IMG/VR virus record: IMGVR_UViG_3300034060_000702 | Coordinates: 18,461 to 82,460 of that record | DNA from: a virus | DNA: 64,000 bases | Direction: 5' to 3' (one strand) | In this document: positions 3,001 through 64,000 of the stretch, in pieces | Layout of the letters: each line of letters begins with the position of its first letter | Position numbering within the stretch: position 1 is the stretch's first letter | Position numbers and translations under genes: made by a program | The notes under the pieces: model-generated | The model's input: only the letters and a program-made list of their open reading frames with translations | Told to the model about the DNA's origin: nothing | The model's database searches: none

Positions 3001-6000
3001 ATTTAATAAAGCTTTAGGATAACTGGCAATCTCTGCATTCGGATCAAAACTTTCTAAATCTTCTGCAGGTAAAGGTTCAACAGCAATTTCTTCAGGAGTA
3101 GTTTCTGGAGTTACTTCTGGAGTATCTTCTTCTTCAACCAAACTGTCATCTTGTTGTGGAGTATTTAATTGACTAGGATCAATCTTAGCTTGAACTACAG
3201 ATACAATACTATTGTAAACAGAATTTGATACATCTACTGTTCTACCTAATAAGTTTGATAAAGCATCAATCAAGTCTGTCCAAATTGTACTTTCTTTTTT
3301 AGGAGCTTTTACTCTAGCAAGCAATGTTTGAAAAGTTTGATTGCCAAAAGATTCTTTAATAAAATCTAATTCTGAATCAAATGCTTTCCAGTTATCTTTG
3401 ATTTGTTCAGAAGGCTTATCTTTATTTTTTTCATTTTCAGACTTAATATAAGCCATAGTTGCTTCTTTCAAAGATTTTACTTCGGCATTAAAAACTGGAT
3501 CATTCTTTAAAGCATCTGTAGTCAATCTTTCTAATTCATTTTTAAGAATCAATTCTTCAATTGAGAAAACACTATTTGTAAAGTTACTTGCAGCATATCT
3601 ACCATCAATGATACTTACACCACCTTTAAATTTATTTGGTCTAGAAGAGTTATCTACAAATGAAACTTTAGCATTCTCATCAACTAATCTCTTTAAAATT
3701 TTAGCTAAATCTTTTTCAGCTTTAGTAGAACTTTTGCTTGCAATAATAGTATCTAAAACATCAGAAACTTTTTGCTCATTAGCAACATCAAATCCATATT
3801 CTTTTGCTATCTCATTGTATGTTCTTTTATCACCTTCATTAATTCGAATACCTCTACCAACTTCTCTATAAATATCATTTTCTTTTTCAAGAATAGGTTG
3901 TTCAATTAAATTATCAACTAATTCATTTAGTTTTTTCAGAGCCATCTTGTATTTTGGATCTGATTGTTTTAAAACTTCTTCTGTTGTAATATCATAAAGT
4001 TCTTTAGGCATTATACCTTTTTGAATGAGTTCATCCATTTCAGATAAATCAAATGATACACCTGCATCTAAAAGTTCTTTGACAACTTTGTTTACTTCTT
4101 CTTGATCTCTAAATTTTGCAATAGAATTTTTTACATAGTCTTTATGCTGTTCAATAATTTGATCAGACATTTTAGACATTCTATCTACATGTGCATTAAA
4201 ATAATTTTCATCACTTAAAATGTCAATATTTTCTTCTAGTCTAGCATTTCTATTTTCTAATTTATAATAGTCATATAATTTAGAAAATGAGTTTTTACTA
4301 AATCTATTTATTTTTGAATTTCGAGAACCTTCATTTACTGTAGTATTATTTGGATCATATTCTTTAGAATGAACAATTTCTAAATATTTTCCATGTCGAA
4401 GTTCCATTGTATCAGCAGCTCGCTTAACTCTTTTGTTAAGTTTTTTTAATAATACTTTTTCAGCCTTACTTGTATTTGGTTTAGATTGTAATTCATCAAT
4501 CTTAGCAATTACTCTATCATGATCTCCTAAAGATTCTTGGTATTGAATAAGAGCTTTAAGTTTCTGATTCTTTTGAATTAAATCTTTTTTAGCTTCAGGT
4601 GTTAAATTTTCATATCCATTTAGAACTGCTAACTCTTGAGTAAGCATTCCTATTTCCTTATTCATTTCTTTATTAGAAGTTAAAGCATTGTAATCATTAA
4701 ATGAAACACCATATGCTTGAGCATCTGTTTGAATTACATTAAGCAAATCTTTTTTTCTATCTAAGTTTTGTTCAAACTCTGCAGTATCAAAAATTAAATC
4801 ATCTACTGCTTTGTTCCAACTATGATGATAATTCATCATTGCATTATAGTTAGGATCATCTTTTTTTAGCTTAGATATATTTACAGGACTTTGATAATCA
4901 TTTTTAAAAGTAGTATACTTAGTTTTAAACTTCTTTGCTTCTTGAACTTTTTTGTTAATTAATTTATTAATTACATCTTGAGAAGAATTTTCATTAATAC
5001 CAAAAGCAGCAGCTGCTTGTTTAGTATCCATAGATTTAAAACCTTCAGTATGCTTAATAAATTCATCAAGCATATCATGTTTCATCATAGTTTGCAAATG
5101 AGCTCTGTAAGACTCATCTTTTTTATCTTGAAAAGTATGTCTATCTCCTTCAGCAGCTGCTTGAACCATTTCATTTTCAAGTCTTGATTGAGTTGCTAAG
5201 TTGTTACCCATACTGTTGTACACAGCACCTACATTTTTATAACCTTCATTGATTAAATCAGAATCTTTTTGAAGCTCATCTAATCTACTTTCTCTTTCAG
5301 TATTAAATGCTTTTTTATTTGTAAATTGTTTATAAGAACCACTTTGTATAGAAGCAAGAGGTGCAGTCATAGTAGAAGTTACAGGACTCACTAAACCTCC
5401 CATTAAAAATCCTGAAAGAAATGTTTCAAACCCTTGTCCTGATTTTTGTTCTTTTAAACCATGAAGTAATGAATCAAAATATCCTCCAGAAGCTTTACTT
5501 CCAAATTGATATTTATTTTTTGCTTGAATAGTTTCCTGAATTGTTTCTTGTAAACCTTCACCTAAATTTGAAATACCATAAGTTCCAGTTTTAGCTATTG
5601 CAGTTTTACCTAATTTACCTAAACCAGTACCAATACCTTTTTCAAAAAGAAGTTTCCCTTGATCTTTAATACCTTGGTAAAAACCTTTTTGAAATATGTT
5701 ACCAGTTCTAATAACTCTAGTTGTACCATCTGCAGCAGTAGCAAGATTACCAAATCTTCCAGTTGATACAAATTTACCTACACCTTTAAGATCATCAAAC
5801 CTTTTATACATGTTATTAAACACAAGTTTATTGGTAGCAAATATTGCTCCTGTGTTTTCCATTAATGTATAAGCTTTTGCATTTTTAATTCTTTTAGTCA
5901 AATCATCAGATTCTTCTGCAGTCATGTTAGGATGTTTATTTATGTATTCATCATACATATCTTTTTCTAACATGTTTGCTTCTAATCTAGCTTCTGATAC

Positions 6001-6867
6001 CGCCATTTGACCTGCTTTAACATCTCTAAATATAGCTGCGCCACCTTGTCCAATTTTACCTAATACTGTAAGATCTTTTACAGAGTTAATCTCTTTTAAA
6101 GACTTAATATATTTAGTTGTATTTTCTATAGGATTTAAAACATTAAGAGCTTTTTTTCCAAAAGTTGCAGCTTTAGATATATCTTTAGCTTTATCAGCAG
6201 CATTAATTGCTCTTTTAATATCATTCATTTTGTCAAAAGCTTTACCTATTTGACCAAATGCTTTGACTCCTTTACCAACCATTGCTGCACCACCTACAGC
6301 TAAAGAACCACCACCAGAAGGAAGTGCTGTAAGTGCAGAAATACCCATTATAGCAAGTTCTTCTGCAACCATGTCCATAGTTATTCCTAAAGTATAACCA
6401 GCATTTAATGTAAGATTTTGTGCAAAGCCCGTAACACCTCCTCTTTGTGTACCATACATATCAGCAACTTTACCAAATTCATTTGCATTCTTTTTTGAAT
6501 TAGCAAATGCTCCAAATAAAGCACTGTCATTAAATCCAATTGCAGCTAATTTACCAGCACCTTTTATACTTCTAGCCCATTGTTCAGAATCAGTAGTTAT
6601 TTTATCATAAAAAGCTTCATTGTCTGTGTTTGCTTGATAACCATAATCATTCCATTTAGAACCATAAGATTGAAGCTTTTCAATCTTTTTATCATACATA
6701 GAAGTATTAATAACTTTAGATGCTGCGGCTTGTTTAAGTTTTACATTATCTCTTCTTTGTGTCGAAGCAGCAGTTACCTCATTTGCAATTTTTTGAATTG
6801 TAGACTCTACAGCTTTAGGGCGATTAACCAATAAGGGATTTTGACCTGGTTTAATTTTATCTGGCAT
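1..6867 (-). CDS. Giant virion ejection/cargo (polyvalent-type) protein, 3'-truncated by the window edge (>2289 aa)
   Basis: ATG at 6867 (MPDKIKPGQNPLL...). The frame was open in every segment I translated, down to base 1, and is missing from the ORF track, consistent with no stop in the window. It has Gly/Ala-rich hydrophobic N-terminal segments, coiled coils, and zincin-like and ART-like modules. It follows the muzzle and cargo genes as in crAss-like phages. Confidence 0.85.
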   Translation of the reverse strand, partial: MPDKIKPGQNPLLVNRPKAVESTIQKIANEVTAASTQRRDNVKLKQAAASKVINTSMYDKKIEKLQSYGSKWNDYGYQANTDNEAFYDKITTDSEQWARSIKGAGKLAAIGFNDSALFGAFANSKKNANEFGKVADMYGTQRGGVTGFAQNLTLNAGYTLGITMDMVAEELAIMGISALTALPSGGGSLAVGGAAMVGKGVKAFGQIGKAFDKMNDIKRAINAADKAKDISKAATFGKKALNVLNPIENTTKYIKSLKEINSVKDLTVLGKIGQGGAAIFRDVKAGQMAVSEARLEANMLEKDMYDEYINKHPNMTAEESDDLTKRIKNAKAYTLMENTGAIFATNKLVFNNMYKRFDDLKGVGKFVSTGRFGNLATAADGTTRVIRTGNIFQKGFYQGIKDQGKLLFEKGIGTGLGKLGKTAIAKTGTYGISNLGEGLQETIQETIQAKNKYQFGSKASGGYFDSLLHGLKEQKSGQGFETFLSGFLMGGLVSPVTSTMTAPLASIQSGSYKQFTNKKAFNTERESRLDELQKDSDLINEGYKNVGAVYNSMGNNLATQSRLENEMVQAAAEGDRHTFQDKKDESYRAHLQTMMKHDMLDEFIKHTEGFKSMDTKQAAAAFGINENSSQDVINKLINKKVQEAKKFKTKYTTFKNDYQSPVNISKLKKDDPNYNAMMNYHHSWNKAVDDLIFDTAEFEQNLDRKKDLLNVIQTDAQAYGVSFNDYNALTSNKEMNKEIGMLTQELAVLNGYENLTPEAKKDLIQKNQKLKALIQYQESLGDHDRVIAKIDELQSKPNTSKAEKVLLKKLNKRVKRAADTMELRHGKYLEIVHSKEYDPNNTTVNEGSRNSKINRFSKNSFSKLYDYYKLENRNARLEENIDILSDENYFNAHVDRMSKMSDQIIEQHKDYVKNSIAKFRDQEEVNKVVKELLDAGVSFDLSEMDELIQKGIMPKELYDITTEEVLKQSDPKYKMALKKLNELVDNLIEQPILEKENDIYREVGRGIRINEGDKRTYNEIAKEYGFDVANEQKVSDVLDTIIASKSSTKAEKDLAKILKRLVDENAKVSFVDNSSRPNKFKGGVSIIDGRYAASNFTNSVFSIEELILKNELERLTTDALKNDPVFNAEVKSLKEATMAYIKSENEKNKDKPSEQIKDNWKAFDSELDFIKESFGNQTFQTLLARVKAPKKESTIWTDLIDALSNLLGRTVDVSNSVYNSIVSVVQAKIDPSQLNTPQQDDSLVEEEDTPEVTPETTPEEIAVEPLPAEDLESFDPNAEIASYPKALLNQLIDGYKQAIKDGDVIADAKINELSDTNITPKFKSWVDDYGTEIINAYDALVNEPMQTNSEVLDDETKANLAGKGYTSDEVDAMTPGQVEQALTDEVLTSPEVTLEEKVIDELIDENIIIESDEETSEETIPIDTTGEGTSDTVSSETNQKENPKQPKSIGANTDVVVVDDQSDRPDIFDEWVNQEISGYDGNKLAISKEIQDLYEFGQSLDANNSEWTIGSFRTQVAGRLIVDVFADGKRFLVYKSTGLGTGAASKGEWTPLFSFAKDGWFVKTNWKGENPKFNKYESTTFKNIDAYLKTAEDSLFSGAQTKPVETVEPVNQSQETTSQAEEFLRTDEEALKKLYFQDSFRTGIHSPKAFLEKLAKEELEKEATANKKLFRKAKAPTKEEISKRAFEMFLDRVKNTKQDNSVFEWRAYDGQGGFGIKYSSDNKTNDMSTVDIRNQKKLHNYTYDETFNSNGVRYVDVKIPIQKSDSTGSNRPSVYTAIVIALPDGMSASEVAEPLIKKAKQLSENRTSYKNPTTTKEMVDALIPIAESIIKKNTPVVQEKTETEKKVDSGVGDNPTTTDTKADIERIINNLPDNLLFITHVTSEGNAKNIFNDSLKMPAGVSSTTGIVNKEQLKQLLFDLAEGKSPHRGYLDLFIGSIDRATLESAPGKSLQDKLENYLEENFIDDVAKRQLPSSLNIGYFTDGVLSIALEDIKPAEQPVGRNQSMHEKIVDKLTSGKSIKAKLTGKTPSSSTGFVIEVDGEKVIIFDHNTAIKAEDFGKPVTLKLVPVLKRPGKKDLDNVIQVYSGDRFLGNVAITDYDTTAKSTLPKEPTEEEILNAAADVVDNNEPIFATQDSKLKELGYTPTDIKRLSKAVKMHIVKNEITKAQYVAEQKALNKLKVENQVQSGITDFLKNRFTGIKTESGLVDVYEELVKYATTKLGVTLNEINDIHLPFIQNIFNQAKIDLANQKDFSTLSVGDKLLLTDGRIVKVSKVNTISPSSKIGSIEV

Positions 6868-6886
6868 AATAATTTTTTTTAAAATA

Positions 6887-9800
6887 TTATTTTATTTTTT
6901 TTTGTGTTTCAAACACATCATTTAAAAAACCTAATGCATCTTCATAACTTTCAAGACTTTCATAATAATCTTTATCTGAATTATATAAAAAAGTATTTAA
7001 GTCTTCAAGTTTTCCATCAACATGTATTACTCCATCAAATTTTAATTCTCCACTATTAGTTTTTTCAACATACACCGCTTTTTTATTAGTTAAATCATTG
7101 CCTCTAAATAATATAGTTCTACCTGTTTGCTGTAAAGATTTATCTTTAGTAGATTGATCTCTGTCATCATACATTTTAGACATTCTAGCATTTGGATTGG
7201 TAGCAAGTGTTATTTTCTGACTTGTTTTTGTATTATAAAAAGATAAACCTTCCCAATCATCTTTAACACCATCTTGCAATCCAGTTAATCCTGATAACTG
7301 ATAACTTAAATTATAAAAATCTTTTGACCTTTGAAGCTCACCGATATACTTTTGAATTTCAGTTTTATCAGTTATTTTATTACCATTAACAAATAAAGCT
7401 CTATCTCCAGTTGCAGATGCTTTAAAAGTTTCATTAATATAGTTCATAGCATCATTTCTAGCAGGAGATAGATCTGCATACATATGAACATTATTTGATT
7501 CATAAATATTATAAGTTGCTGGACCAACTCCTGATTTATTTTTAGTTTGTTTAAGACCTATACTTAAACCTTCATGATATTTTTCAGTATATGTTTGATA
7601 TTCTTCATTTAAATCATCAATATCTCTTCTACCAAGTGCTATATTTTTTTTAATAAATTCTCTTTTAGAAATTAAAAAACCATCTTTAACAACATCTTTT
7701 TGAAAAGGATATTGATAGTCATCAAGACCATCTTTCATTTTAGTTACTATATCATCATGCCCTTCTTTTTTAAGGTTAAAATGATTTGTCATATCTTCTT
7801 GAATATCCGCAATTCTATCTTGTGCCTTTTGAACTTTAGGAGATTCTAACATTTTAAGTAATTTTGGATTATCTCCAGGACTATCAGTTTTCTTTTGCAC
7901 ATTATACTTATATAAAGTTTGAGAAAAACTAGAATTATTTTCAATTAAATTCATCAAACCCCAATCCGAAATTTCATTTTCTTTATACTTAGTATTTGCA
8001 ACAAAATATTCTTTTACTGGTTTTTTACCTTGTTCTCTTGTAGAAGATTCTTCTCTAAGTTTATTTATATTATTATTTTCAACTCCTCTTTGTTTAATAA
8101 AATTTAAAGCTTGTCTTTTAATAAGTTTATATTCAGCAGAATTTTTATCAAGTGTTTCAATATAAGCCCTGTTTACAACTTTTGTTTTTGCACCTAATGT
8201 ATTATTTAAGTAACTTGATTGTTTATTATAAGCACTTGCTACAGACTCACTAGAAACTGTTTGTGCACCAGTCATATCAAATGATTGATCTTTATTTAAC
8301 TTTTCATACTTAGCTGCAATATTTTTCTTTTCAGTAGCTGATAACTTTTCAATAGGTTTTTTACTAAGTTCTTTATATGCTTTTTGAACAGAAGGATTAG
8401 CATGACTATCTGCAACAAACTGTATCATTTCTTTTGTTACAGGTTTTGTTGCAACTAATTTTTTCTTTTCTGCATTAACAACCTTGTTTGTATGTATGGC
8501 AATTGTTTTTGAATCGCCTGCATTAATTTTTTCAGTTGTAGCTTTAGGAAGCGGGATATAAGACTCTTGAATTATCTGCACAGCCTGTTTCTTAGCTACA
8601 GGATTAACATTAAGATCTGCAGCTTTTGTACTTCGCTTACCATTGTTTTTATTTATTTCAGCATTTACTTCTGGTTCACTATATAATTGTTGACCAGTAC
8701 CTGTTAAAATACCATTTATTGTTCCTAAAGTTTTACTAACTCCAGTAACAGCGGATGATTTTTTATTTTTATAATCTTCTTGAGTTCTACCACTAGCTTT
8801 TTTATCTTCATTATATAAATTGCTGAAAGATCCTCCTGTTACAGGTTTTGTACCAGACTTATCAAGCCACTGTGCTTGCTGTCTTTTAATATTTTCTTCA
8901 TTTAAAGGTCTTAGTTTATCAAGTTTGGTTTTAGCTTCTTTATATTTTTCACCAGTAACAGCAGATGAATTATTTGTTAATACCGTTTCAAGTGTTTTAA
9001 TTTCATCAGCCCAATGACCTTTAAGTTTAGGACCTTTATAGTTTTCAGAAAGATAAGCAGATACTGTTGTATTAGCTAATTTATTACCTTTACCTTCTTT
9101 ACCATCAGTGCTAGTACCAAATGGATTTGATTCATCAGTTTTTAAAGAAGCTTTATGACTCTCTAAAGCTACTCTATTAGATTGTTTAATACCTTCCATC
9201 ATAACATCATACTGATGCTTTACACTTAACTTAGCAAACTCATCAGCTTCTTTCTTTTGAGTCATAGTATTATCAGCAATACTTTTTGCAGCACCAGTAA
9301 TATCCTCATGCATAAATATTGCAGCATCTCTTGAATCTAATTGAGAAGCCATATTTCTTATGTAAGTATTGTCATTTGCTTTCTCTGCAGTCATCTTAGC
9401 CAACTTAATATACTGACTTGCTTGTTGAGCACCAGGAAGAAGTTGTTGTAAAGCATTATACTCTTTTGCAAGATTTGAATCTTTAGCAACTTTACCAGCT
9501 TTTATTTTTTCTTCAAGAGCTGATATTCTACCAGAAATGTATTCTTCATCTGCATTAGATTGTTCTAATATAGAATTAATTTTTTCTTGCTGAACTGTTC
9601 CTTGTCTTCTATAATATTCAGAAGTTGCAGCATTCTCATCAAGTCCAGTTTCAGACATAATTGAACCTACATTGTTTTTTCTAGTTACATAAGCTTGTGC
9701 CTCATATTGCTTTAACAATTTTGGATCATTAGCATATAAGTTTGTAAACAATTCTGCCAAAGGACCATAAGCTTGAGGACCATTTTTAGTAGTCACCATA

Positions 9801-10396
9801 TAGTTTCCTATAAGTTGATCACTTGAGATTTCAAGTTTATTATCTTTAGCATACTTCATTGCTTTGTCCATCATGTTAGTATATGGGATATACTCTACAT
9901 TCTCAAAGCCCAAAGATTCATCATTAGAAGCATCCTTAAACTCTTTTAGTTTGTATTCCATATACTGATCACCTTGATCCCAAGCTTGACCACCACACTT
10001 ATCAGGATCCACACAATTTCTTAAAGCTTCTCCTCTAGACTTTTCATTTTGAAAATTCTTAGTCCACACCATATCTTTTACAATATGGTTGTTATTATAA
10101 ATAGCTTGAAAAACATTTGCTGCAGCATCAACATTTTCATCAAGTGAAAAATCCATACCAGCCATTTTTACAATATCGGTATTGATGTTTTTTACAAACT
10201 GATCTCTAGCCGCAATATTCTCATTCCTACTCATAGAAGAATTTAATATTGAACCATAAAGCTCACTTATCTTTTGATGATTTGCATCAAACTTAGTTTG
10301 TTTGGTTTGCAAAATTTGTGCATCAAATGCTAAATTCGGTTCAGTAGGTTGAATTTGTGATATGTAATCTGTAACTCCTGGTTGATATGTTGCCAT
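6887..10396 (-). CDS. Virion ejection/cargo protein (1169 aa)
   Basis: Long helical ORF (MATYQPGVTDYISQIQP...) lying between the muzzle gene and the giant ORF, the crAss cargo-gene position. Confidence 0.7.
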   Translation of the reverse strand: MATYQPGVTDYISQIQPTEPNLAFDAQILQTKQTKFDANHQKISELYGSILNSSMSRNENIAARDQFVKNINTDIVKMAGMDFSLDENVDAAANVFQAIYNNNHIVKDMVWTKNFQNEKSRGEALRNCVDPDKCGGQAWDQGDQYMEYKLKEFKDASNDESLGFENVEYIPYTNMMDKAMKYAKDNKLEISSDQLIGNYMVTTKNGPQAYGPLAELFTNLYANDPKLLKQYEAQAYVTRKNNVGSIMSETGLDENAATSEYYRRQGTVQQEKINSILEQSNADEEYISGRISALEEKIKAGKVAKDSNLAKEYNALQQLLPGAQQASQYIKLAKMTAEKANDNTYIRNMASQLDSRDAAIFMHEDITGAAKSIADNTMTQKKEADEFAKLSVKHQYDVMMEGIKQSNRVALESHKASLKTDESNPFGTSTDGKEGKGNKLANTTVSAYLSENYKGPKLKGHWADEIKTLETVLTNNSSAVTGEKYKEAKTKLDKLRPLNEENIKRQQAQWLDKSGTKPVTGGSFSNLYNEDKKASGRTQEDYKNKKSSAVTGVSKTLGTINGILTGTGQQLYSEPEVNAEINKNNGKRSTKAADLNVNPVAKKQAVQIIQESYIPLPKATTEKINAGDSKTIAIHTNKVVNAEKKKLVATKPVTKEMIQFVADSHANPSVQKAYKELSKKPIEKLSATEKKNIAAKYEKLNKDQSFDMTGAQTVSSESVASAYNKQSSYLNNTLGAKTKVVNRAYIETLDKNSAEYKLIKRQALNFIKQRGVENNNINKLREESSTREQGKKPVKEYFVANTKYKENEISDWGLMNLIENNSSFSQTLYKYNVQKKTDSPGDNPKLLKMLESPKVQKAQDRIADIQEDMTNHFNLKKEGHDDIVTKMKDGLDDYQYPFQKDVVKDGFLISKREFIKKNIALGRRDIDDLNEEYQTYTEKYHEGLSIGLKQTKNKSGVGPATYNIYESNNVHMYADLSPARNDAMNYINETFKASATGDRALFVNGNKITDKTEIQKYIGELQRSKDFYNLSYQLSGLTGLQDGVKDDWEGLSFYNTKTSQKITLATNPNARMSKMYDDRDQSTKDKSLQQTGRTILFRGNDLTNKKAVYVEKTNSGELKFDGVIHVDGKLEDLNTFLYNSDKDYYESLESYEDALGFLNDVFETQKKIK

Positions 10397-57435: not shown

Positions 57436-57926
57436 TATTTGGAATTAAATTCATTAAAATATATCAAGCAATCCTTTGCGATTGTTTTTCTCTTTCTAGC
57501 AAGATGAGGATTTAACATTATATGTTTAAATTCTACCCCATCCTTTACACCAGCTATATAATATACCACCCCACCTTTGTACAACCTCTTCATAAAATCA
57601 GCATACTTATTTCGAGTATATTTTAATTCATCCATCAAAGAACTATCAGTGTGCGGAATCTTGCGATCATGATACAAAATGTTATAACTACCATTTGTCA
57701 TATTCGCCATCTTCAATATCCTACCATAATCAACAGGAGTGAAGTTGTCAACAATGTAAGCCAATGCCTTTGAATCAATCACCACATACTCATCACTGTG
57801 AACAATAACCAAATCTTCATTAACAATATTTACTGTAGTTCCTTCAGGAAAAAACTCACCAGTAGAAGCATCTACTAGGTTTCCATCACTTTTCTTCTTT
57901 GTAACTATTGGTTTAATCATGGACAA
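57435..57926 (-). CDS. RepL-like (plasmid replication/maintenance) HTH protein
   Basis: LVDASTGE N-terminus, central helix-turn-helix, IMLNPHLA C-terminal motif; start may be the ATG at 57921. Confidence 0.6.
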   Translation of the reverse strand: MSMIKPIVTKKKSDGNLVDASTGEFFPEGTTVNIVNEDLVIVHSDEYVVIDSKALAYIVDNFTPVDYGRILKMANMTNGSYNILYHDRKIPHTDSSLMDELKYTRNKYADFMKRLYKGGVVYYIAGVKDGVEFKHIMLNPHLARKRKTIAKDCLIYFNEFNSK

Positions 57927-57949
57927 ATATAATCAATTTTTATATGCTG

Positions 57950-58043
57950 TGCACCTTTTTGGGTGATTTGTTTGCACCTTTTTTGGTGTGACCATCAACA
58001 CATTCATTGGGCTGTAGCAATTTAACTGCACCTTTTTAGGTGC
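57950..58043. repeat. Three palindromic TGCACC-TTTTTN-GGTG sites (operator/iteron-like)
   Basis: Copies at 57950, 57973 and 58027, directly upstream of the repL-like gene. Confidence 0.8.
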
Positions 58044-58319
58044 GAAGGTAGTCTGTAATTCAGTCTATATCAACACTTTACAAAAACACTCTATATTAGT
58101 ATATTTCAGAAAAAATTATGGGTAATATTTTTTTGGAGTATATAGGGGGAAATGATGGTCCTTCTATATAACAATCCCCGGCTTCAACAAGGATTGGGGT
58201 TACCCCCTGGTTGGCTAGTGGCTTGCAATTTATTCATAGAATACATTGCTCTTTAATTCCTGTGGGAGAAGTGTTACTGTAGGAAGAAAGAGATCATGTG
58301 CTTGGTGTGTGCTCCAGGA

Positions 58320-58366
58320 GGGCAGGGGAGGGAGGGGGGAGGGGGTGGCAGAGCAGGGCAGGGAGG
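58320..58366 (+). other. G-quadruplex-forming motif
   Basis: GGGCAGGGGAGGGAGGGGGGAGGGGGTGGCAGAGCAGGGCAGGGAGG: seven runs of at least 3 G. Confidence 0.75.
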
Positions 58367-58424
58367 ACCAGAAGCTGTATGTATATATAGTATATACTCT
58401 AGTACTAATAGGATGATATGATGT

Positions 58425-58470
58425 GTGTCTTCGACACCTATACAATCACATACCCTTTTATATGAAATAT
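58425..58470 (+). promoter_or_regulatory. Triloop-hairpin element 1 (candidate virion-RNAP promoter)
   Basis: GTGTC-TTC-GACAC-CT...ACATACCCTTTTA, ending 47 bp before the first early ATG. Confidence 0.6.
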
Positions 58471-58483
58471 AAATCAATTAGAT

Positions 58484-58726
58484 ATGAAAAATTATTCTGT
58501 ATTTATTGGCTTTTCAGGTATGGAAAGCCAAGAAGAATTCCAGGGAAATCTTGATGCTTGCAAAGGCTATGCTTATGCTATGAAAGATTTCCAAAATATT
58601 TCTACTATTCACATAGTGGAATTAAGCCCAGAACATTATTGGGCTGATGATTTAGAGGTAATGTTAGACCAAGAACTAACACCTCAAATGATTGAAGGAT
58701 ATGATGACATCTTAGTTATCATCTAA
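58484..58726 (+). CDS. Early hypothetical protein
   Basis: 80-aa acidic ORF with an A/T-rich leader. Confidence 0.7.
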   Translation: MKNYSVFIGFSGMESQEEFQGNLDACKGYAYAMKDFQNISTIHIVELSPEHYWADDLEVMLDQELTPQMIEGYDDILVII

Positions 58727-58737
58727 TCCAACAAACA

Positions 58738-58842
58738 ACACCTGAACATGTGTATAAACTGTTTCCTTTAATTGGTTTATGGTAAAAACCTTTGACTCCC
58801 TCCTGAACAAATATGTCACATAACAAGAGGTTAAACTGTTCA
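58738..58842 (+). ncRNA. Two copies of a candidate H-type pseudoknot motif
   Basis: stem-CTGAACA-x-stem-(A/T)TAAAC-TGTT(T/C) at 58738-58764 and 58799-58842. Confidence 0.5.
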
Positions 58843-58872
58843 TTATTTATTAATCATTTAAAATTTATTATT

Positions 58873-59052
58873 ATGAAAAGGATTACTATCATTTATTCAA
58901 TCATCATTATCTGTATGATAATGATGACAATGAGTTTGGTGTGCATGATGTTACCATCAAACACTGGAGAACAATTAATGTTTTGCATGTTCTCTTTTGT
59001 AGGCTGGAGTCTTCCAGCATGTGCTTTGTTATTGTTAACAAAGCACAACTAA
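58873..59052 (+). CDS. Small two-TM membrane protein (likely start 58873)
   Basis: Two hydrophobic helices. Confidence 0.6.
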   Translation: MKRITIIYSIIIICMIMMTMSLVCMMLPSNTGEQLMFCMFSFVGWSLPACALLLLTKHN

Positions 59053-59093
59053 ACACTTAGCAGGGTGGTGTATCTCACCCTGCATTTTAAATT
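59050..59093 (+). promoter_or_regulatory. Leader hairpin motif, copy 1
   Basis: TAAACACTTA-GCAGGGTG-GTGTATCT-CACCCTGC-ATTTTAAATT; second copy at 60128-60172. Confidence 0.6.
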
Positions 59094-59100
59094 AATTATT

Positions 59101-59271
59101 ATGATTATTAAAATTTTATTCTACTTGTTCTTATCAATGGTATTGATGGGAGCAGGAACAACTGTAGTGTACAATGGTATGATTGGTTTTGTAGGACTAA
59201 TGTTATTCCTATTGGGATTGTTCTTCCTGATTCTTCTTGTACATTATGACCTAGAGAAACATAATCTCTAG
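59101..59271 (+). CDS. Small two-TM membrane protein (likely start 59101)
   Basis: Two hydrophobic helices. Confidence 0.6.
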   Translation: MIIKILFYLFLSMVLMGAGTTVVYNGMIGFVGLMLFLLGLFFLILLVHYDLEKHNL

Positions 59272-59274
59272 GTC

Positions 59275-59421
59275 ATGTACAGTCTTATGTACATTGTAAA
59301 TGGCTCTACAGTTGTGGAGTCATTCACCTTTCCTTCTAAAGCATTGTGCCTTTGGAAGAAGAAAATATTAATTAACCAAGGTACTCACAACATGGGTATC
59401 TTTAAAATCAAAGCCTTATGA
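59275..59421 (+). CDS. 48-aa early protein, not in the ORF track
   Basis: MYSLMYIVNGSTVVESFTFPSKALCLWKKK...; ATGA overlap with the next gene. Confidence 0.65.
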   Translation: MYSLMYIVNGSTVVESFTFPSKALCLWKKKILINQGTHNMGIFKIKAL

Positions 59422-59687
59422 AAAAGTCTAACATGACAAGAGGAGCATCTGTTGGGTTGTTCTGTTTGTCTACAATGCTTGTGATAACAGCATTGTTAAT
59501 CTTAATCTTATGTTCTTGTGGTTCAATGCCACAGGAACAGAAAGCATTGAACAGTGTTCAATGGGAAAATAGCATTTGGAATCCAGCAAATGAAGAGTTT
59601 GTTGATGAGGTAGCATTCAATGAGGATGTTGCTTCATCATCTGTTACTCAACAGATGTTTGACCAAAGATATTCAGCAGGGTACTAA
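59418..59687 (+). CDS. Putative lipoprotein
   Basis: Hydrophobic stretch then LCS-CGSM lipobox. Confidence 0.6.
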   Translation: MKKSNMTRGASVGLFCLSTMLVITALLILILCSCGSMPQEQKALNSVQWENSIWNPANEEFVDEVAFNEDVASSSVTQQMFDQRYSAGY

Positions 59688-59690
59688 CAT

Positions 59691-59714
59691 AGGTAGGGCT
59701 TCGGCTCTACCTTT
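59691..59714 (+). terminator. cUUCGg hairpin terminator
   Basis: AGGTAGGGC-TTCG-GCTCTACCT-TT. Confidence 0.7.
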
Positions 59715-59715
59715 A

Positions 59716-59756
59716 TTGTCTTCGACAACTGAAAAATACATCCTTATTTAATTAAA
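59716..59756 (+). promoter_or_regulatory. Triloop-hairpin element 2
   Basis: TTGTC-TTC-GACAA-CT...ACATCCTTATTTAAT, directly after a terminator. Confidence 0.6.
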
Positions 59757-59767
59757 AATTATATATT

Positions 59768-60118
59768 ATGGAAAAGATAGAAGGAACATTAGTAACAGGG
59801 CTCTTAGGAAAAATTATATCAGGCTCAAGTTACAGAAGAATATATGCAGCGCATATGATTGTTCAGAATGAGTTTGACCATTTTACAACCGAAGCAATAA
59901 TATATGCTCGGTTAGAATGGAGTAAATTCCTAAGAGATACTTATTCTGAAAAAGATAGGCTTAAATATCTATGGGAAAAATGTTTTGAGTATGACTCGCC
60001 AAATATTTTAATACCTATCATTGATGTAGAAATTGATGATGAGTATGGTATTAAAATAATTGTTACTCAACATCCAAAGGTAGTGTTGGAAAAAGAAGAT
60101 GATGGTCTTCCTTTTTAA
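59768..60118 (+). CDS. Early hypothetical protein with acidic DDGLPF tail
   Basis: 116 aa; SSB-like C-terminal tip. Confidence 0.65.
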   Translation: MEKIEGTLVTGLLGKIISGSSYRRIYAAHMIVQNEFDHFTTEAIIYARLEWSKFLRDTYSEKDRLKYLWEKCFEYDSPNILIPIIDVEIDDEYGIKIIVTQHPKVVLEKEDDGLPF

Positions 60119-60127
60119 CAAACAAAA

Positions 60128-60172
60128 TAAACACTTAGGGGAGTAGTGTATCTCACTCCCCATTTTTAAATT
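60128..60172 (+). promoter_or_regulatory. Leader hairpin motif, copy 2
   Basis: TAAACACTTA-GGGGAGT-AGTGTATCTC-ACTCCCC-ATTTTTAAATT. Confidence 0.6.
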
Positions 60173-60180
60173 TATATATT

Positions 60181-60429
60181 ATGAGTTTTATTAAAGGAGA
60201 TCGCAGATTTCTAGATGACACTAGCACACTGTGTACAAATTTTCTATCTGAAAAGATCAGAATAGAACTTAATGAAAAACTAGGGTTTATCCCTAAGAAT
60301 GCCTATATAGGTAATGCTGCTGGTGACTATATGTTTATTAGTGTTGTAGATATGAATGGTGATGTGTACACTTACACAGACTCTTACAATCTAAATGCAG
60401 AACTGCAAGATAAAGGCATTGATTATTAA
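60181..60429 (+). CDS. Early hypothetical protein
   Basis: 82-aa ORF. Confidence 0.65.
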   Translation: MSFIKGDRRFLDDTSTLCTNFLSEKIRIELNEKLGFIPKNAYIGNAAGDYMFISVVDMNGDVYTYTDSYNLNAELQDKGIDY

Positions 60430-60464
60430 CATTTAAAAATCAGTATGATACACTGGTTATAATA

Positions 60465-60496
60465 AAGAATAGGACTTCGGTCCTATTCTTATTTTC
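60465..60496 (+). terminator. cUUCGg terminator
   Basis: AAGAATAGGAC-TTCG-GTCCTATTCTT-ATTTT. Confidence 0.8.
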
Positions 60497-60571
60497 TTCA
60501 CTGTGTAGGTTAGAGTAGGTTGTGTGTGTTGGTTTACTATCACCACACTCACCCACTCCCATCCCACATCA

Positions 60572-60612
60572 ATGCCTTCGGCATCTATTCAATTACTTCC
60601 TCTTTTAGATAA
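60572..60612 (+). promoter_or_regulatory. Triloop-hairpin element 3
   Basis: ATGCC-TTC-GGCAT-CT...ACTTCCTCTTTTAGAT. Confidence 0.6.
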
Positions 60613-60681
60613 AATATATATCAATGTTAAAACAAGATGTGAAGAGCATGTTAACATTGATTATATGGAAGTTAATTGAGT

Positions 60682-60722
60682 ATGTCTTCGACATCTTTGG
60701 TTAACTTCCTTTTTTAAATAAA
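60682..60722 (+). promoter_or_regulatory. Triloop-hairpin element 4
   Basis: ATGTC-TTC-GACAT-CT...ACTTCCTTTTTTAAAT. Confidence 0.6.
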
Positions 60723-60809
60723 ATTAATTATAGCCGATTGCACAGGCTTGGTATGTGTAAATAAATTTAAAAGACTTCGAGTGTGGAATAGTAACACTCA
60801 CAATTAATC

Positions 60810-61166
60810 ATGGGTAGAGTAGCAAAAACAACAGTTAATGTAACAGTTAACACAGGAAAATTAAATCCTTTTACAAATGGTGTTATTAAAGGATTTGTAA
60901 CATTAGAAGAGGTTACAAAAGGTGTTAATACAAACGGAAAAGAGTTTGTGATCATACCAGGTTTTGGTGTGACTTACATGCGCATTTCCGAAATCAAAGC
61001 AGGCATCAAATATGGTGTTGTGCAATTTGATTCAAACACCGAAGGAAATGAAGGTGCACTGGCACTTAATAAGATTTCAGGTATGGAAGAGTTAAAATAT
61101 TACATGAACCAATTTCCAGGTTCTAGTATGATTGACATAAAAGAATTGTTTGGGATTAAATTATAA
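60810..61166 (+). CDS. Early beta-rich protein in its own transcription unit
   Basis: 118 aa; preceded by two hairpin elements and followed by a terminator. Confidence 0.75.
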   Translation: MGRVAKTTVNVTVNTGKLNPFTNGVIKGFVTLEEVTKGVNTNGKEFVIIPGFGVTYMRISEIKAGIKYGVVQFDSNTEGNEGALALNKISGMEELKYYMNQFPGSSMIDIKELFGIKL

Positions 61167-61181
61167 TCCCAAATAATTCAT

Positions 61182-61216
61182 ATGGTGTGCCCTTCGGGGT
61201 GCACCATTTTCTTTTT
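61182..61216 (+). terminator. cUUCGg terminator
   Basis: ATGGTGTGCCC-TTCG-GGGTGCACCAT-TTT. Confidence 0.8.
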
Positions 61217-61219
61217 ATG

Positions 61220-61411
61220 CAAACAAACAGAGATCCTGAATTAACAGGTTTCCTCGGAAAGAGGAAGAGAGGTTGGTGAAGTACAAGCCATAAAACAGAG
61301 GAACCTCGCTGTTGACATACCACAAGTTACTTAATCCGAAAGGAAGATAATTGGGGTATGCATTGCATATAAAAAAGCACTACTCTTCGGAGTAGTGCTT
61401 TGTTTTTTTTT
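61220..61411 (+). ncRNA. Candidate structured small RNA between two terminators
   Basis: TTCCTC/GAGGAA, GAGGTT/AACCTC, CATACC/GGTATG and TCC-GAAA-GGA stems; no listed ORF. Confidence 0.45.
61374..61411 (+). terminator. cUUCGg terminator
   Basis: AAAGCACTACTC-TTCG-GAGTAGTGCTTT-GT9. Confidence 0.85.
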
Positions 61412-61413
61412 AA

Positions 61414-61630
61414 TACTATCCCATGGCAAGGATGTCGGTTAGTTGTTGTTTAAATTACTATCCCATATCCGACCACATCCTGAAGTTCTCATGTATTGAA
61501 TACAATCCCATGGTAGGCATAATGTATTGCTCCGCAATCTATTCAAATACTACTGTAGGAAGAACCAGAATGTTTTGATTACTATCCCACAGCAACCATA
61601 TCCGAGAGGCCAGGTATGCTTACTATCATC
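61414..61630 (+). repeat. Degenerate interspaced TACTATCCCA array
   Basis: Copies at 61414, 61456, 61501 (TACAATCCCA), 61548 (degenerate), 61580 and 61621 (TACTATCATC). Confidence 0.65.
61526..61550 (+). promoter_or_regulatory. Triloop-hairpin element 5 (TCC loop variant)
   Basis: ATTGC-TCC-GCAAT-CT-ATTCAAATACT. Confidence 0.5.
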
Positions 61631-61711
61631 TGTAAACCTTCCACATAAAAAAACCAAATGTTGCTTTTGTGATGCAACTAAATATTAAACCTCCTATAAA
61701 ACTTATTAATC

Positions 61712-61906
61712 ATGTCAGAACAAGAATTAAAAAATAATAAGATTGCAGAAGTAAGACTTACTGCTAAAGAATTTAATAACATGCAAGCATTGGCTGTGCA
61801 AGAAAGTGAACCTTTACTACATACCTATAACAATGGTGGTGTAACAGTAAAAGTAGCAATAGGCTTCCTAATTACATTTGGCTATTTGGATTTAATCGCC
61901 TTTTAG
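61712..61906 (+). CDS. Early hypothetical protein
   Basis: 64-aa ORF. Confidence 0.65.
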   Translation: MSEQELKNNKIAEVRLTAKEFNNMQALAVQESEPLLHTYNNGGVTVKVAIGFLITFGYLDLIAF

Positions 61907-62015
61907 TAAATACACTCACAGTTTTATATAATAGGGTTTTTCATAAGCCCTATTTATAATTCCTATTATTGCTCACATAAGCGCATTACCATAAATGGTT
62001 TATGCTCAAATGCTT

Positions 62016-62056
62016 GTGTCTTCGACACCTTTTTTTCTTACTCCCTTTTTTAAATA
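62016..62056 (+). promoter_or_regulatory. Triloop-hairpin element 6
   Basis: GTGTC-TTC-GACAC-CT...ACTCCCTTTTTTAAAT. Confidence 0.6.
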
Positions 62057-62254
62057 GTGTTTGTCGATACATTAAGCCACTTTTATACCCAAAAACAGGG
62101 GTTTTTACTAAATTCATCGACAAAAAACAGCCATTCATCGAAATTGAGGTGAGAAAATAATATAATAAGGACTTTTGTGGGTATATGATAGACTCTCCAA
62201 CACCTTATTCTTCAATCCTTCATTTCGCTTATAAACCCAAAAAACTTTAATACT

Positions 62255-62554
62255 ATGATTAAAACACACACAATAACACTCACAATGCTCTGTATTGCTC
62301 TATTCAGCATCAGTAGCATCCTTACATTATGTTACCCTGTGATTGGCATGACTTTCAATTTGTTTGTCCTTATATCTCTTTATATAGTTCTTCTATTCCA
62401 TAGTAGAAGGATTGAAGCTGTAGGACCAATCAAATCCTATGAAAGCCACATAATCCAAGCATTAGTACTGCATATCAAAACCACCGACACAGAGAACCTT
62501 TACAAGGATTCTCCATTAGAAGAATTAGTTAACAACCACCTAAAACAAAACTAA
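62255..62554 (+). CDS. Two-TM membrane protein
   Basis: 99 aa with N-terminal hydrophobic helices. Confidence 0.65.
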   Translation: MIKTHTITLTMLCIALFSISSILTLCYPVIGMTFNLFVLISLYIVLLFHSRRIEAVGPIKSYESHIIQALVLHIKTTDTENLYKDSPLEELVNNHLKQN

Positions 62555-62555
62555 A

Positions 62556-62780
62556 ATGGAATACTGGAAACAAAAAGATGGAACCTTAATATCAGTAGAT
62601 GATATGTCCATTAATCACCTTCGCAACACCTTGAAGATGATAATCAAAAACCTTAATAAGATTGAGGCTAAACAAGTTAAACCTACACCAAAGTTTCAAC
62701 TACATGGTGATATTGCACAAGACCATTTCGATACCATGATGGATGAAGAATATGGTAATCAATTCGAAGACCAATGGTAA
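62556..62780 (+). CDS. Conserved small phage protein
   Basis: W.QKDG..ISVDDMS.NHLRN motif. Confidence 0.7.
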   Translation: MEYWKQKDGTLISVDDMSINHLRNTLKMIIKNLNKIEAKQVKPTPKFQLHGDIAQDHFDTMMDEEYGNQFEDQW

Positions 62781-63028
62781 GCGACATAATCCAAATAGCA
62801 TTTCTTATTATCTTTTGTGTAACACTAATAAGATTAAATAAGAAAACTGCTAGGCTAATTGCAGGATTAGAGGCAGAGAATAAAAAGATTCGCGAGAATT
62901 ATAACAATACCCTCAAAGATCTAATAGCATCATACCACATGCTAATTGCTGCACATGATGGTCACTTGACCATCGAAGAGATAAATGAATTCATTAATAA
63001 ACCCACACAAAATGGAAGTAACAATTAA
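62774..63028 (+). CDS. TM plus coiled-coil hypothetical protein
   Basis: 84-aa ORF. Confidence 0.6.
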   Translation: MVSDIIQIAFLIIFCVTLIRLNKKTARLIAGLEAENKKIRENYNNTLKDLIASYHMLIAAHDGHLTIEEINEFINKPTQNGSNN

Positions 63029-63311
63029 CAAAACAGAATGCACATTAGTATTCTCAAGATACCAAAGCAATCATCGCACATCCCTGCAACTAATTGAAGT
63101 TGAAACAGGTGAACCTTATATGACTGCTTCAGTAAACATGCCGGATGTACATCTATCCGATGACATGATATGCATCAAAAATTACAGTGAGAATGAGGGT
63201 ATCCTTAATGTTCTCATTGATGCAAACATATTATTGCCATTGGATTTAATCCAATCAGGCATAATGAAGTGCATGTTTATCATACCAAGATCAGTATATG
63301 AGCAAGCATAG
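63012..63311 (+). CDS. DUF4313-like protein (likely start 63012)
   Basis: Y......LQL....GEPYMTASVN...IKNYSENEGIL..L. Confidence 0.65.
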   Translation: MEVTINKTECTLVFSRYQSNHRTSLQLIEVETGEPYMTASVNMPDVHLSDDMICIKNYSENEGILNVLIDANILLPLDLIQSGIMKCMFIIPRSVYEQA

Positions 63312-63492
63312 AATAAAAGGTAATGATTTTACTGTAAGAGCAATAAGATTTGCACAGACATACAACTGCACAACGGTTGGTCAATGCCTGAAAGTATTAT
63401 CATTGCTAACTGATGCACAACTACAACGCACTCACTTCATTAGAAGAAGATTGCTTAAAGAGTTCAATGAATTTTTAACATCTAAACAATAA
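63298..63492 (+). CDS. Hypothetical protein
   Basis: 64-aa basic ORF. Confidence 0.55.
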   Translation: MSKHRIKGNDFTVRAIRFAQTYNCTTVGQCLKVLSLLTDAQLQRTHFIRRRLLKEFNEFLTSKQ

Positions 63493-63501
63493 AAAAAAGC
63501 T

Positions 63502-63876
63502 ATGAGAGAATTAGACAAAGATAATTTACCATTCTATGAAATAAGTAGTAGAATAAATGAGTACACAGGAACCGGTGGTGAATACATAGTTCACAAGTTA
63601 GACTTTGCTTTAGTAATTCATAGCAAAACACAATTCATTCTAATAAAATATGGGAATGATATGTACGAATGGTTTCTTCGGTATGTAACACCAACACCAA
63701 CTAACGATGGTGAAAAAATTAAATTTGTAGATGTAGATGGAGTACCAACTGCAACAATATACAAAGAACAATCAATCGAAAACACATTCTTTAGGGCTGC
63801 AATAAAAGCAGACATCGCTGTTGATTACAGGGAAGTAAAGGAAGATTGGTTTTGGTATAACAATAAAAAAGAATAA
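63502..63876 (+). CDS. Hypothetical protein
   Basis: 124-aa ORF. Confidence 0.65.
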   Translation: MRELDKDNLPFYEISSRINEYTGTGGEYIVHKLDFALVIHSKTQFILIKYGNDMYEWFLRYVTPTPTNDGEKIKFVDVDGVPTATIYKEQSIENTFFRAAIKADIAVDYREVKEDWFWYNNKKE

Positions 63877-63878
63877 GT

Positions 63879-64000
63879 ATGCTAACATTTACATTTGCCA
63901 CATACACACTGCTATTAAGTTACAATCCATGTGATGTATTCACACACTTCGGTGTCACTGAAATGCATGGATTAAACTTAGCAGATTGTCAGGCACACGC
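63879..64000 (+). CDS. Hypothetical protein, truncated by the window end
   Basis: MLTFTFATYTLLLSYNPCDVFTHFGVTEMHGLNLADCQAH..., open to the edge. Confidence 0.6.
   Translation, partial: MLTFTFATYTLLLSYNPCDVFTHFGVTEMHGLNLADCQAH

Follow-up and report, generated by a model that had tools for sequence, protein, structure and literature searches.

Hairpin-and-box elements as candidate early promoter cassettes in a distant crAss-like phage

INTRODUCTION

crAss-like phages are among the most abundant viruses known, and each injects a giant RNA polymerase. The rightward module of phi14:2 is early and rifampicin resistant in its entirety, and the polymerase gp66 transcribes single-stranded DNA. The sole paper on a crAss-type virion RNA polymerase (vRNAP) found no common motif upstream of the phi14:2 early transcripts. 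Here we describe six intergenic elements, H1 to H6, in the early region of a distant, uncultured crAss-like virus (IMG/VR record IMGVR_UViG_3300034060_000702), each made of a small triloop hairpin, an adjacent CT, and usually a second box (box2) a few nucleotides downstream. The window is a stretch of 64,000 nucleotides, bases 18461 to 82460 of the 82,460-bp contig (L001), and the coordinates below are window positions. A reading of the letters alone (the original prediction) had proposed that these elements are early promoters of the injected RNA polymerase, convergent with those of coliphage N4, and knew of none described for this group. Our literature search likewise turned up no published account of promoters like these in crAss-like phages.

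RESULTS

The elements lie in a series of rightward units of open reading frames (ORFs) (Table 1). The first unit runs from H1 through ORF1 to ORF4 to the terminator at 59691, and the second runs from H2 through ORF5 and ORF6 to the terminator at 60465. In the third, the heptamer TACTATC at 60535 is followed by H3, H4, ORF7, and the terminator at 61182. A terminated noncoding stretch ending at 61401 comes after the ORF7 unit, and then copies of TACTATC, with H5 among them, precede ORF8. The last unit consists of H6 and a densely packed operon from 62255. Ahead of the units that start with H1, H2, and H6, nothing but these elements is conserved. Intrinsic terminators in the rightward direction occur far more often than expected (16 versus 2.6). 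All six elements face the early-gene direction, as had been claimed; they are on the plus strand, confined to the early region, and placed like promoters. The claim that several sit right after terminators holds strictly for H2 alone, which starts 3 nt past the first unit's terminator and fills the 55 nt up to the following ATG almost entirely, whereas H3, H5, and H6 lie 55 to 125 nt past terminator-like hairpins.

To count the hairpins, we used a strict pattern, N4C-T(T/C)C-G-N4'-CT, in which N4' is the perfect complement of N4. A scan of the whole 82,460-bp contig returned six plus-strand matches between 58425 and 62030, namely the six elements of the original prediction, with none on the minus strand and none outside this interval on either strand. 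The pattern is thus confined to the early region in 82 kb. Chance expectation, from 300 dinucleotide-preserving shuffles, was a mean of 0.017 matches per genome over both strands, with a maximum of 1, and a chance origin was rejected on these counts. No match occurred in 1.1 Mb around the terminase genes of 80 relatives.

The hairpin geometry is exactly 5 bp plus 3 nt in all six elements, and both strands fold as predicted. Covariation was assessed on seven sequences, H1 to H6 and the H1 copy of a close strain. Every stem cell of this alignment is paired (100%, with no unpaired cell), both partners change in three of the five stem pairs, and the observed covariation score was reached by 0 of 500 shuffles. 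In slid registers of the alignment, just 17 to 46% of cells pair. Compensatory changes of such symmetry point to genuine base pairing and speak against a pair of independent half-sites bound by a dimeric protein. An inverted repeat that binds an early on/off regulator was down-weighted on these grounds, because a dimeric protein does not predict perfectly symmetric compensatory changes; moreover, a palindrome of 5+3+5 is short for helix-turn-helix dimers. The hairpins were also rejected as terminators, since T-runs are missing.

In the loop, the two end bases never vary and the middle base toggles between T and C. On the template strand, H1 to H6 read C-GAA-G five times and C-GGA-G once, a strain variant of H3 described below also has GGA, and all eight known loops are G-R-A closed by C:G. 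The alignment revealed no conserved sequence 5' of the hairpins, so that the element begins at the hairpin. Box2 (AC..CC.TTTT.A) lies downstream of five of the six, after spacers of 7, 8, 8, 7, and 9 nt. The original prediction had described stems that vary while pairing is kept, template loops of these two kinds only, and a second box 7 to 9 nt further on, and each of these descriptions held. We conclude that the elements are real, selected, strand-specific cis-elements.

In H5, ACTACTG stands at the position of box2, and the element is located in a lineage-specific insert inside a conserved noncoding region. The elements measure ~36 nt from hairpin to box2 and ~50 to 60 nt to the start codon; in H1 to H3 the ATG lies 30 to 36 nt past the start of box2. 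Because the hairpin-to-ATG distance ranges from 40 to 240 nt, a translational operator is excluded. Box2 was also considered as a degenerate TTACTATC, but the two share no more than (T)TAC(T), and a likeness this weak does not support the claim. Two further features were seen near the elements. An exact 13-mer, ACTGTAGGAAGAA, occurs twice on the plus strand, at 58276-58288 (~150 nt 5' of H1) and at 61552-61564 (in the place of box2 after H5). About 60 nt 5' of H1, at 58317-58366 (plus strand), the DNA is G-rich with many G runs; in the close strain L228, this G-richness is retained and the sequence is not.

Table 1. Hairpin elements and other features. Positions are those of the window unless a contig or genome is named; G004, G006, and G007 are L082, L254, and L255, respectively.
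Feature	Position	Strand	Sequence and context
H1 hairpin	58425-58437	+	GTGTC-TTC-GACAC-CT
H1 element	58425-58460	+	CT, 8-nt spacer, box2 ACATACCCTTTTA at 58448-58460; ATG of 80-aa ORF at 58484
H2 hairpin	59716-59728	+	TTGTC-TTC-GACAA-CT
H2 element	59716-59750	+	CT, 7-nt spacer, box2 ACATCCTTATTTA; ATG of 116-aa ORF at 59768
H3 hairpin	60572-60584	+	ATGCC-TTC-GGCAT-CT
H3 element	60572-60607	+	CT, 8-nt spacer, box2 ACTTCCTCTTTTA; 30 nt 3' of TACTATC 60535
H4 hairpin	60682-60694	+	ATGTC-TTC-GACAT-CT
H4 element	60682-60716	+	CT, 7-nt spacer, box2 ACTTCCTTTTTTA; 118-aa ORF start at 60810
H5 hairpin	61526-61538	+	ATTGC-TCC-GCAAT-CT
H5 element	61526-61555	+	TCC loop, CT, spacer resembling that of H3, ACTACTG instead of box2
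H6 hairpin	62016-62028	+	GTGTC-TTC-GACAC-CT
H6 element	62016-62052	+	CT, 9-nt spacer, box2 ACTCCCTTTTTTA; heads operon from 62255
TACTATC (TTACTATCA class), five intergenic copies	60535-60541, 61414, 61456, 61580, 61621	+	
Intrinsic terminator	59691-59712	+	cUUCGg loop; closes first unit
Further terminators	60465-60490, 61182-61207, 61374-61401	+	
Bacteroidota -7 box	57924-57931	-	TATATTTG; 11 nt before leftward 161-aa gene; marks where host-type promoters begin
vRNAP ORF, 4,674 aa	contig (L001) 4194-18218	-	just left of window
Box2-like motif, span	G006 (L254) 6474-9880		
Box2-like motif, span	G007 (L255) 2175-4976	reverse	
Different triloop hairpin class	G004 (L082) 4541, 4738, 5201	+	(T/C)TACC-TT(C/T)-GGTA(A/G)-TT

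Host-type signals were sought around the elements. No TAnnTTTG box was found in the intergenic plus strand from 57900 to 62255, and no sigma-70-like site was flagged at the elements. Bacteroidota-type -7 boxes of this form start leftward operons on the minus strand, at 57931, 49553, 41874, and 22842. In the divergent intergenic region beside the TATATTTG box, three GCACC-T5-6-(A/G)GGTG palindromes (57951-58042, plus strand) were noted, which are ~98% conserved in strain L228 and recur in relatives.

Close strains provided a view of how the elements are inherited. In strain L228, a metagenome contig whose neighboring protein is 93% identical to that of this phage, the H1 hairpin is retained base for base, with two substitutions in the rest of the element, one in the spacer and one in box2. 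About 12 nt past this box2, L228 diverges completely into a different gene; it also has TACTATC 6 nt 5' of H1. In lake sequencing run X8, a 565-nt contig carries a diverged ORF5 homologue with a match to the H2 element on either side. Downstream, the match is at least 48 nt long, stands after a different terminator, and heads another ORF; upstream, it is 33 nt long and covers at most the hairpin and CT. X8 further contains an H3-type hairpin with a TCC loop (ATGCC-TCC-GGCAT-CT) joined to box2 of H4; relative to the window, the middle base of the loop toggles between T and C on an unchanged H3 stem. Gene-swap break points between close strains thus fall at elements, after H1 in L228 and at H2 and H3/H4 in X8. 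The gene swap in L228 and the joints in X8 indicate that the element behaves as a portable unit heading different genes.

These swaps and joints, located exactly at the elements as in the T4-type PeSL cassettes (PMC2839356, PMC4122927), would also be expected if the repeats were recombination substrates or selfish repeats that shuffle early cassettes and have no direct role in transcription start. However, PeSLs are themselves promoter-terminator units, which makes shuffling a consequence and not an alternative, and the strict orientation, fixed distance to box2, conserved loop, and compensatory stems speak for selection of a structure-dependent function. We give recombination alone very little credence.

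The phage was predicted to be crAss-like, and it is a distant crAss-like virus: its portal, large terminase (TerL), and major capsid protein match PHROGs and are of the crAss-like kind, and TerL is ~25% identical to those of crAss-like, IAS, and Flavobacterium phages (E to 1e-28). The injected polymerase implied by the original prediction is encoded as well; its gene was missed at first because it sits just left of the window. Residues ~1537 to 2161 of this 4,674-aa ORF match phi14:2 g066, which is annotated as "Catalytic RNA polymerase subunit" (E 4e-14), and cr108_1 (E 7e-24) in tblastn, and DYDVD at residue 2148 corresponds to the DxDxD catalytic motif. The ORF continues into AlkB-like, DprA/SLOG-like, and C-terminal Dda-like helicase domains (helicase E 7e-73), the last being an SF1B-type helicase fused to the gp66-type polymerase. 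Judged by these matches, the vRNAP is of the gp66 two-barrel type. T7-like RNA polymerase (PF00940) gave no match in the contig or in five complete relatives, in a search without a positive control. Polymerase cores are 30 to 48% identical among relatives whose TerL is 56 to 85% identical. We rejected the idea that the hairpin class tracks an outlier polymerase, because the core of L001, at 33 to 34%, is not unique within that range. DNA of the phage and its close strains occurs in many lake-water metagenomes (24 runs, all lake or freshwater DNA metagenomes).

Searches of the early region for known families returned little. A PHROGs search of ten early ORFs yielded nothing informative, blastn of the region against named phages gave no match, Rfam showed no family above threshold in 57800-64000, and a tRNA search found none. 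Two other repeated structures were seen there. Terminator-like hairpins at 59051-59089 and 60129-60167 (plus strand) have a common 5' flank, AAACACTTAG, a common loop, GTGTATCT, and covarying stems, and an ATG follows each after 17 to 18 nt; recombination reaches these hairpins too, as 60166 is joined to 59050 in lake contigs. The noncoding stretch 61218-61711 (plus strand) comprises a segment ending in the terminator at 61374-61401 and then repeated TAC(T/A)ATCCCAT units, which are homologous to a conserved noncoding region of relatives. It recalls the abundant early noncoding RNAs of phi14:2.

DISCUSSION

The explanation that we favor is that the six elements are phage-specific early promoter cassettes, each heading a rightward unit and usually following the terminator of the preceding one. 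The C/T-rich box2 (ACYYCCTTTTTTA) would be the core start signal, and transcription would probably start at or just past it, leaving A/U-rich leaders of 30 to 36 nt in H1 to H3. The 5-bp triloop hairpin, 9 to 11 nt 5' of box2, would be a lineage-specific add-on that most likely acts as DNA: once extruded, the mini-hairpin with its template-strand C-GAA-G or C-GGA-G could serve to open or flag the duplex, given a polymerase with a preference for single-stranded templates. The enzyme that reads the cassettes would most likely be the injected gp66-type vRNAP, whose fusion to an SF1B helicase fits the need for a single-stranded template. We put the probability of this whole explanation at roughly 45%. 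Its parts carry different weights. The elements are probably early promoters, as their placement suggests, and if they are, we have slightly more confidence still that the hairpin acts at the DNA level. Their assignment to the virion polymerase is tentative and falls a little short of an even chance.

Relatives of this phage bear on both halves of the cassette. G006 and G007, more distant relatives whose TerL proteins are 60% and 56% identical to that of this phage, carry a box2-like motif, AACCCCTTTTT, with the full form (A)AACCCCTT(TTTTT). Its six to seven copies in G006/G007 are on the sense strand only, mostly after terminators, within the first ~3.5 kb of the early region, and ~30 to 45 nt 5' of the ATG where a small ORF follows. 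The motif therefore agrees with box2 in sequence, in location, and in its spacing from the ATG, and no hairpin was found upstream of it in either genome. Most simply, box2 would be the older core and the hairpin a later gain of this lineage, and the comparison suggests this order for the signal as a whole. In G006, a further AACCAATTAA box was observed between the box2-like motif and the ATG, and H1 has ATCAATTAG at the equivalent place. A different class of triloop hairpin, in three copies with a conserved 20-nt 5' flank, is present in the early region of the complete relative G004.

The bare box of G006 and G007 is also the first of several points that weigh against our explanation. No hairpin of the present class was found in relatives whose neighboring 161-aa protein is 47 to 86% identical, and the first 50 kb of phi14:2, the sole tested system, contains no 5-bp C-TNC-G or C-GNA-G triloop hairpin. 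A covariance model built from the seven copies finds just those seven in 563 kb of phage and relatives. In IMG/VR, a scan for TGTCTTCGACANCT N7-9 AC gave, among the matches listed, single chance ones and none with further elements; a composite scan for the hairpin loop plus box2 gave six matches, none with a hairpin; and early ORF7, used as an anchor, has no relatives there. The hairpin class is thus lineage specific and known in near-identical strains only; since it is missing from the relatives, it is not the essential determinant in the family. Nearest-neighbor DNA energies of -2.2 to -3.6 kcal/mol are modest. All stems are Watson-Crick, which makes G-U pairs unusable for telling the strand or an RNA fold. 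Promoter function is read from position only, and the contig is ~69% complete, with ~38 kb missing (complete relatives are ~120 kb).

A further point against our explanation is a family-wide motif, TTACTATCA, which is a candidate promoter in its own right and a better-conserved rival candidate for the vRNAP promoter. Its class, tTACTATCA(Y)C, occurs 116 times in the early sense and 4 times in antisense over 175 kb of early-region sequence from ~35 relatives, and it is the top strand-biased 8-mer in 14 to 15 of 17 loci (carriers include L086-L099, L232-L246, and G004-G008). Nearly all copies in five complete genomes are on one strand; in the three genomes for which the module could be assigned to a strand, the copies follow the rightward (early) strand and cluster densely where it begins. 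Copies often follow the T-run of a terminator, 0 to 30 nt before an ATG, and are succeeded by G-poor, C/A-rich sequence. We rejected a general need of TACTATC sites for an upstream hairpin, because only ~1/5 of the sites listed closely follow a terminator (by eye).

If TTACTATCA were the true vRNAP promoter, the hairpin and box2 would belong to another control layer, either a second promoter class read by the host RNA polymerase with a phage factor or the regulator-binding repeat considered above. Along with the strand bias, the clustering on the early strand, and the five copies in the window, this alternative draws on the compactness of the motif, which lacks an upstream -35-like block as expected for a phage polymerase, and on its conservation although the vRNAP cores are just 30 to 48% identical. 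However, no TACTATC precedes the H2, H4, and H6 units, and these units therefore need another start signal. In addition, the host-polymerase version lacks a host-type -7 box alongside the elements, and the same polymerase may read both motif classes. We consider it unlikely that TTACTATCA displaces the elements in this way.

Alternatively, the hairpins could act in RNA, as a 5'-leader stem-loop made from upstream starts or by read-through, with box2 as an RNA motif. Transcript stabilization, a cleavage site that frees cassette mRNAs, and a nut-like or other protein-binding site are possible roles. Covariation fits RNA equally well, and other local hairpins, the cUUCGg terminators, clearly act in RNA. 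Moreover, H3 lies 30 nt past TACTATC 60535 and the H1 copy of L228 lies 6 nt past its own TACTATC, so that both could be transcribed, which tells against promoter hairpins. Nevertheless, H2 would rarely be transcribed from upstream, as it starts 3 nt past a strong terminator, and its filling of the gap to the ATG is promoter-like and hard to square with an RNA element. No conserved upstream sequence could serve as the hairpins' promoter. The hairpin-less motif of G006 and G007 stands at the promoter place; if the start is at or after box2, as these relatives indicate, the hairpin is upstream of it and must act as DNA. Finally, this genome uses cUUCGg tetraloops for its RNA hairpins, and the C-UUC-G triloop is, to our knowledge, not an especially stable RNA loop. 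An RNA role thus appears rather improbable.

The cassettes that we favor can be compared with three known systems, the first being the early promoter set P1 to P3 of coliphage N4, read by the vRNAP gp50 (PMC4496689). In both sets, a stem of 5 bp and a loop of 3 nt come from an inverted repeat; the template strand has 5'-GNA-3' in this loop and C:G closing it, a sheared G:A mini-hairpin. The sheared pair accounts for the unusual stability of the N4 hairpins and lets them extrude at physiological supercoiling (PMC4496689). The variable stem positions may hold any base provided that they pair, which for our elements is seen by sequence alone, and each set belongs to the early region of a phage with an injected polymerase of its own, from a family that prefers single-stranded templates. 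In contrast to N4, whose enzyme is T7-like, this phage has an unrelated two-barrel gp66-type enzyme; it has six copies and not three; its separate box 9 to 11 nt downstream seems to be the core, working without a hairpin in relatives; and its hairpin is not conserved across the phage family. Over the N4-equivalent positions -17 to +1, only the CT at -4/-3 is invariant, with the conserved box still further 3'. At the N4-equivalent +1, 11 nt from the loop center, the base varies (A, A, T, G, T, and T in H1 to H6).

T4-type PeSL cassettes (PMC2839356, PMC4122927) are likewise short repeated stem-loop regulatory units that flank small early ORFs of unknown function and mark gene-swap break points between close strains. 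Unlike our elements, which have no sigma-70-like site or Bacteroidota -7 box, PeSLs carry sigma-70-type early promoters. The stem-loop of a PeSL is regarded as a terminator, whereas in this phage true terminators exist apart from the elements, whose hairpin, a 13-nt triloop, is too weak for that role. Lambda-type nut sites (boxA plus boxB) resemble the elements in pairing a small 5-bp hairpin with a linear box, repeated in a terminator-rich early region. However, the order of box and hairpin is reversed here, a triloop takes the place of the GNRA-like pentaloop, all six copies directly precede genes, one of them right behind a terminator, and no N-like protein was identified.

The claim that the elements are N4-convergent early promoters of the injected polymerase therefore survives in part. 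The crAss-like affiliation, the gp66-type vRNAP, the promoter-like placement, and the N4-like loop geometry all agree with it, but the hairpin is absent from relatives, the box works without it, TTACTATCA competes, and the N4-equivalent start base varies. An N4-style reading, in which the template-strand hairpin is recognized by, or helps, the injected polymerase, is plausible but less likely than not, with a weight equal to or somewhat below that of the assignment to that polymerase. The broadest form of the idea, that crAss-like two-barrel vRNAPs use an extruded template-strand GNA mini-hairpin in their early promoters, convergent with N4 and with the hairpin as a modular enhancer on an older linear box, is in our view doubtful. 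If true, it would explain why sequence-only searches found no phi14:2 early promoter.

The promoters of crAss-like vRNAPs have been undefined so far, and this locus offers three short, mutable candidates: the hairpin, box2, and TTACTATCA. Because the elements mark the boundaries of shuffled early-gene cassettes, they may also aid the annotation of crAss-like early regions. What the present case adds is the picture of a core plus an add-on, in which the comparative data suggest that the linear start box came first and the hairpin later. Should the hairpin act as a DNA structure, the only earlier promoter type of this kind would be that of N4, and the two would have arisen independently.

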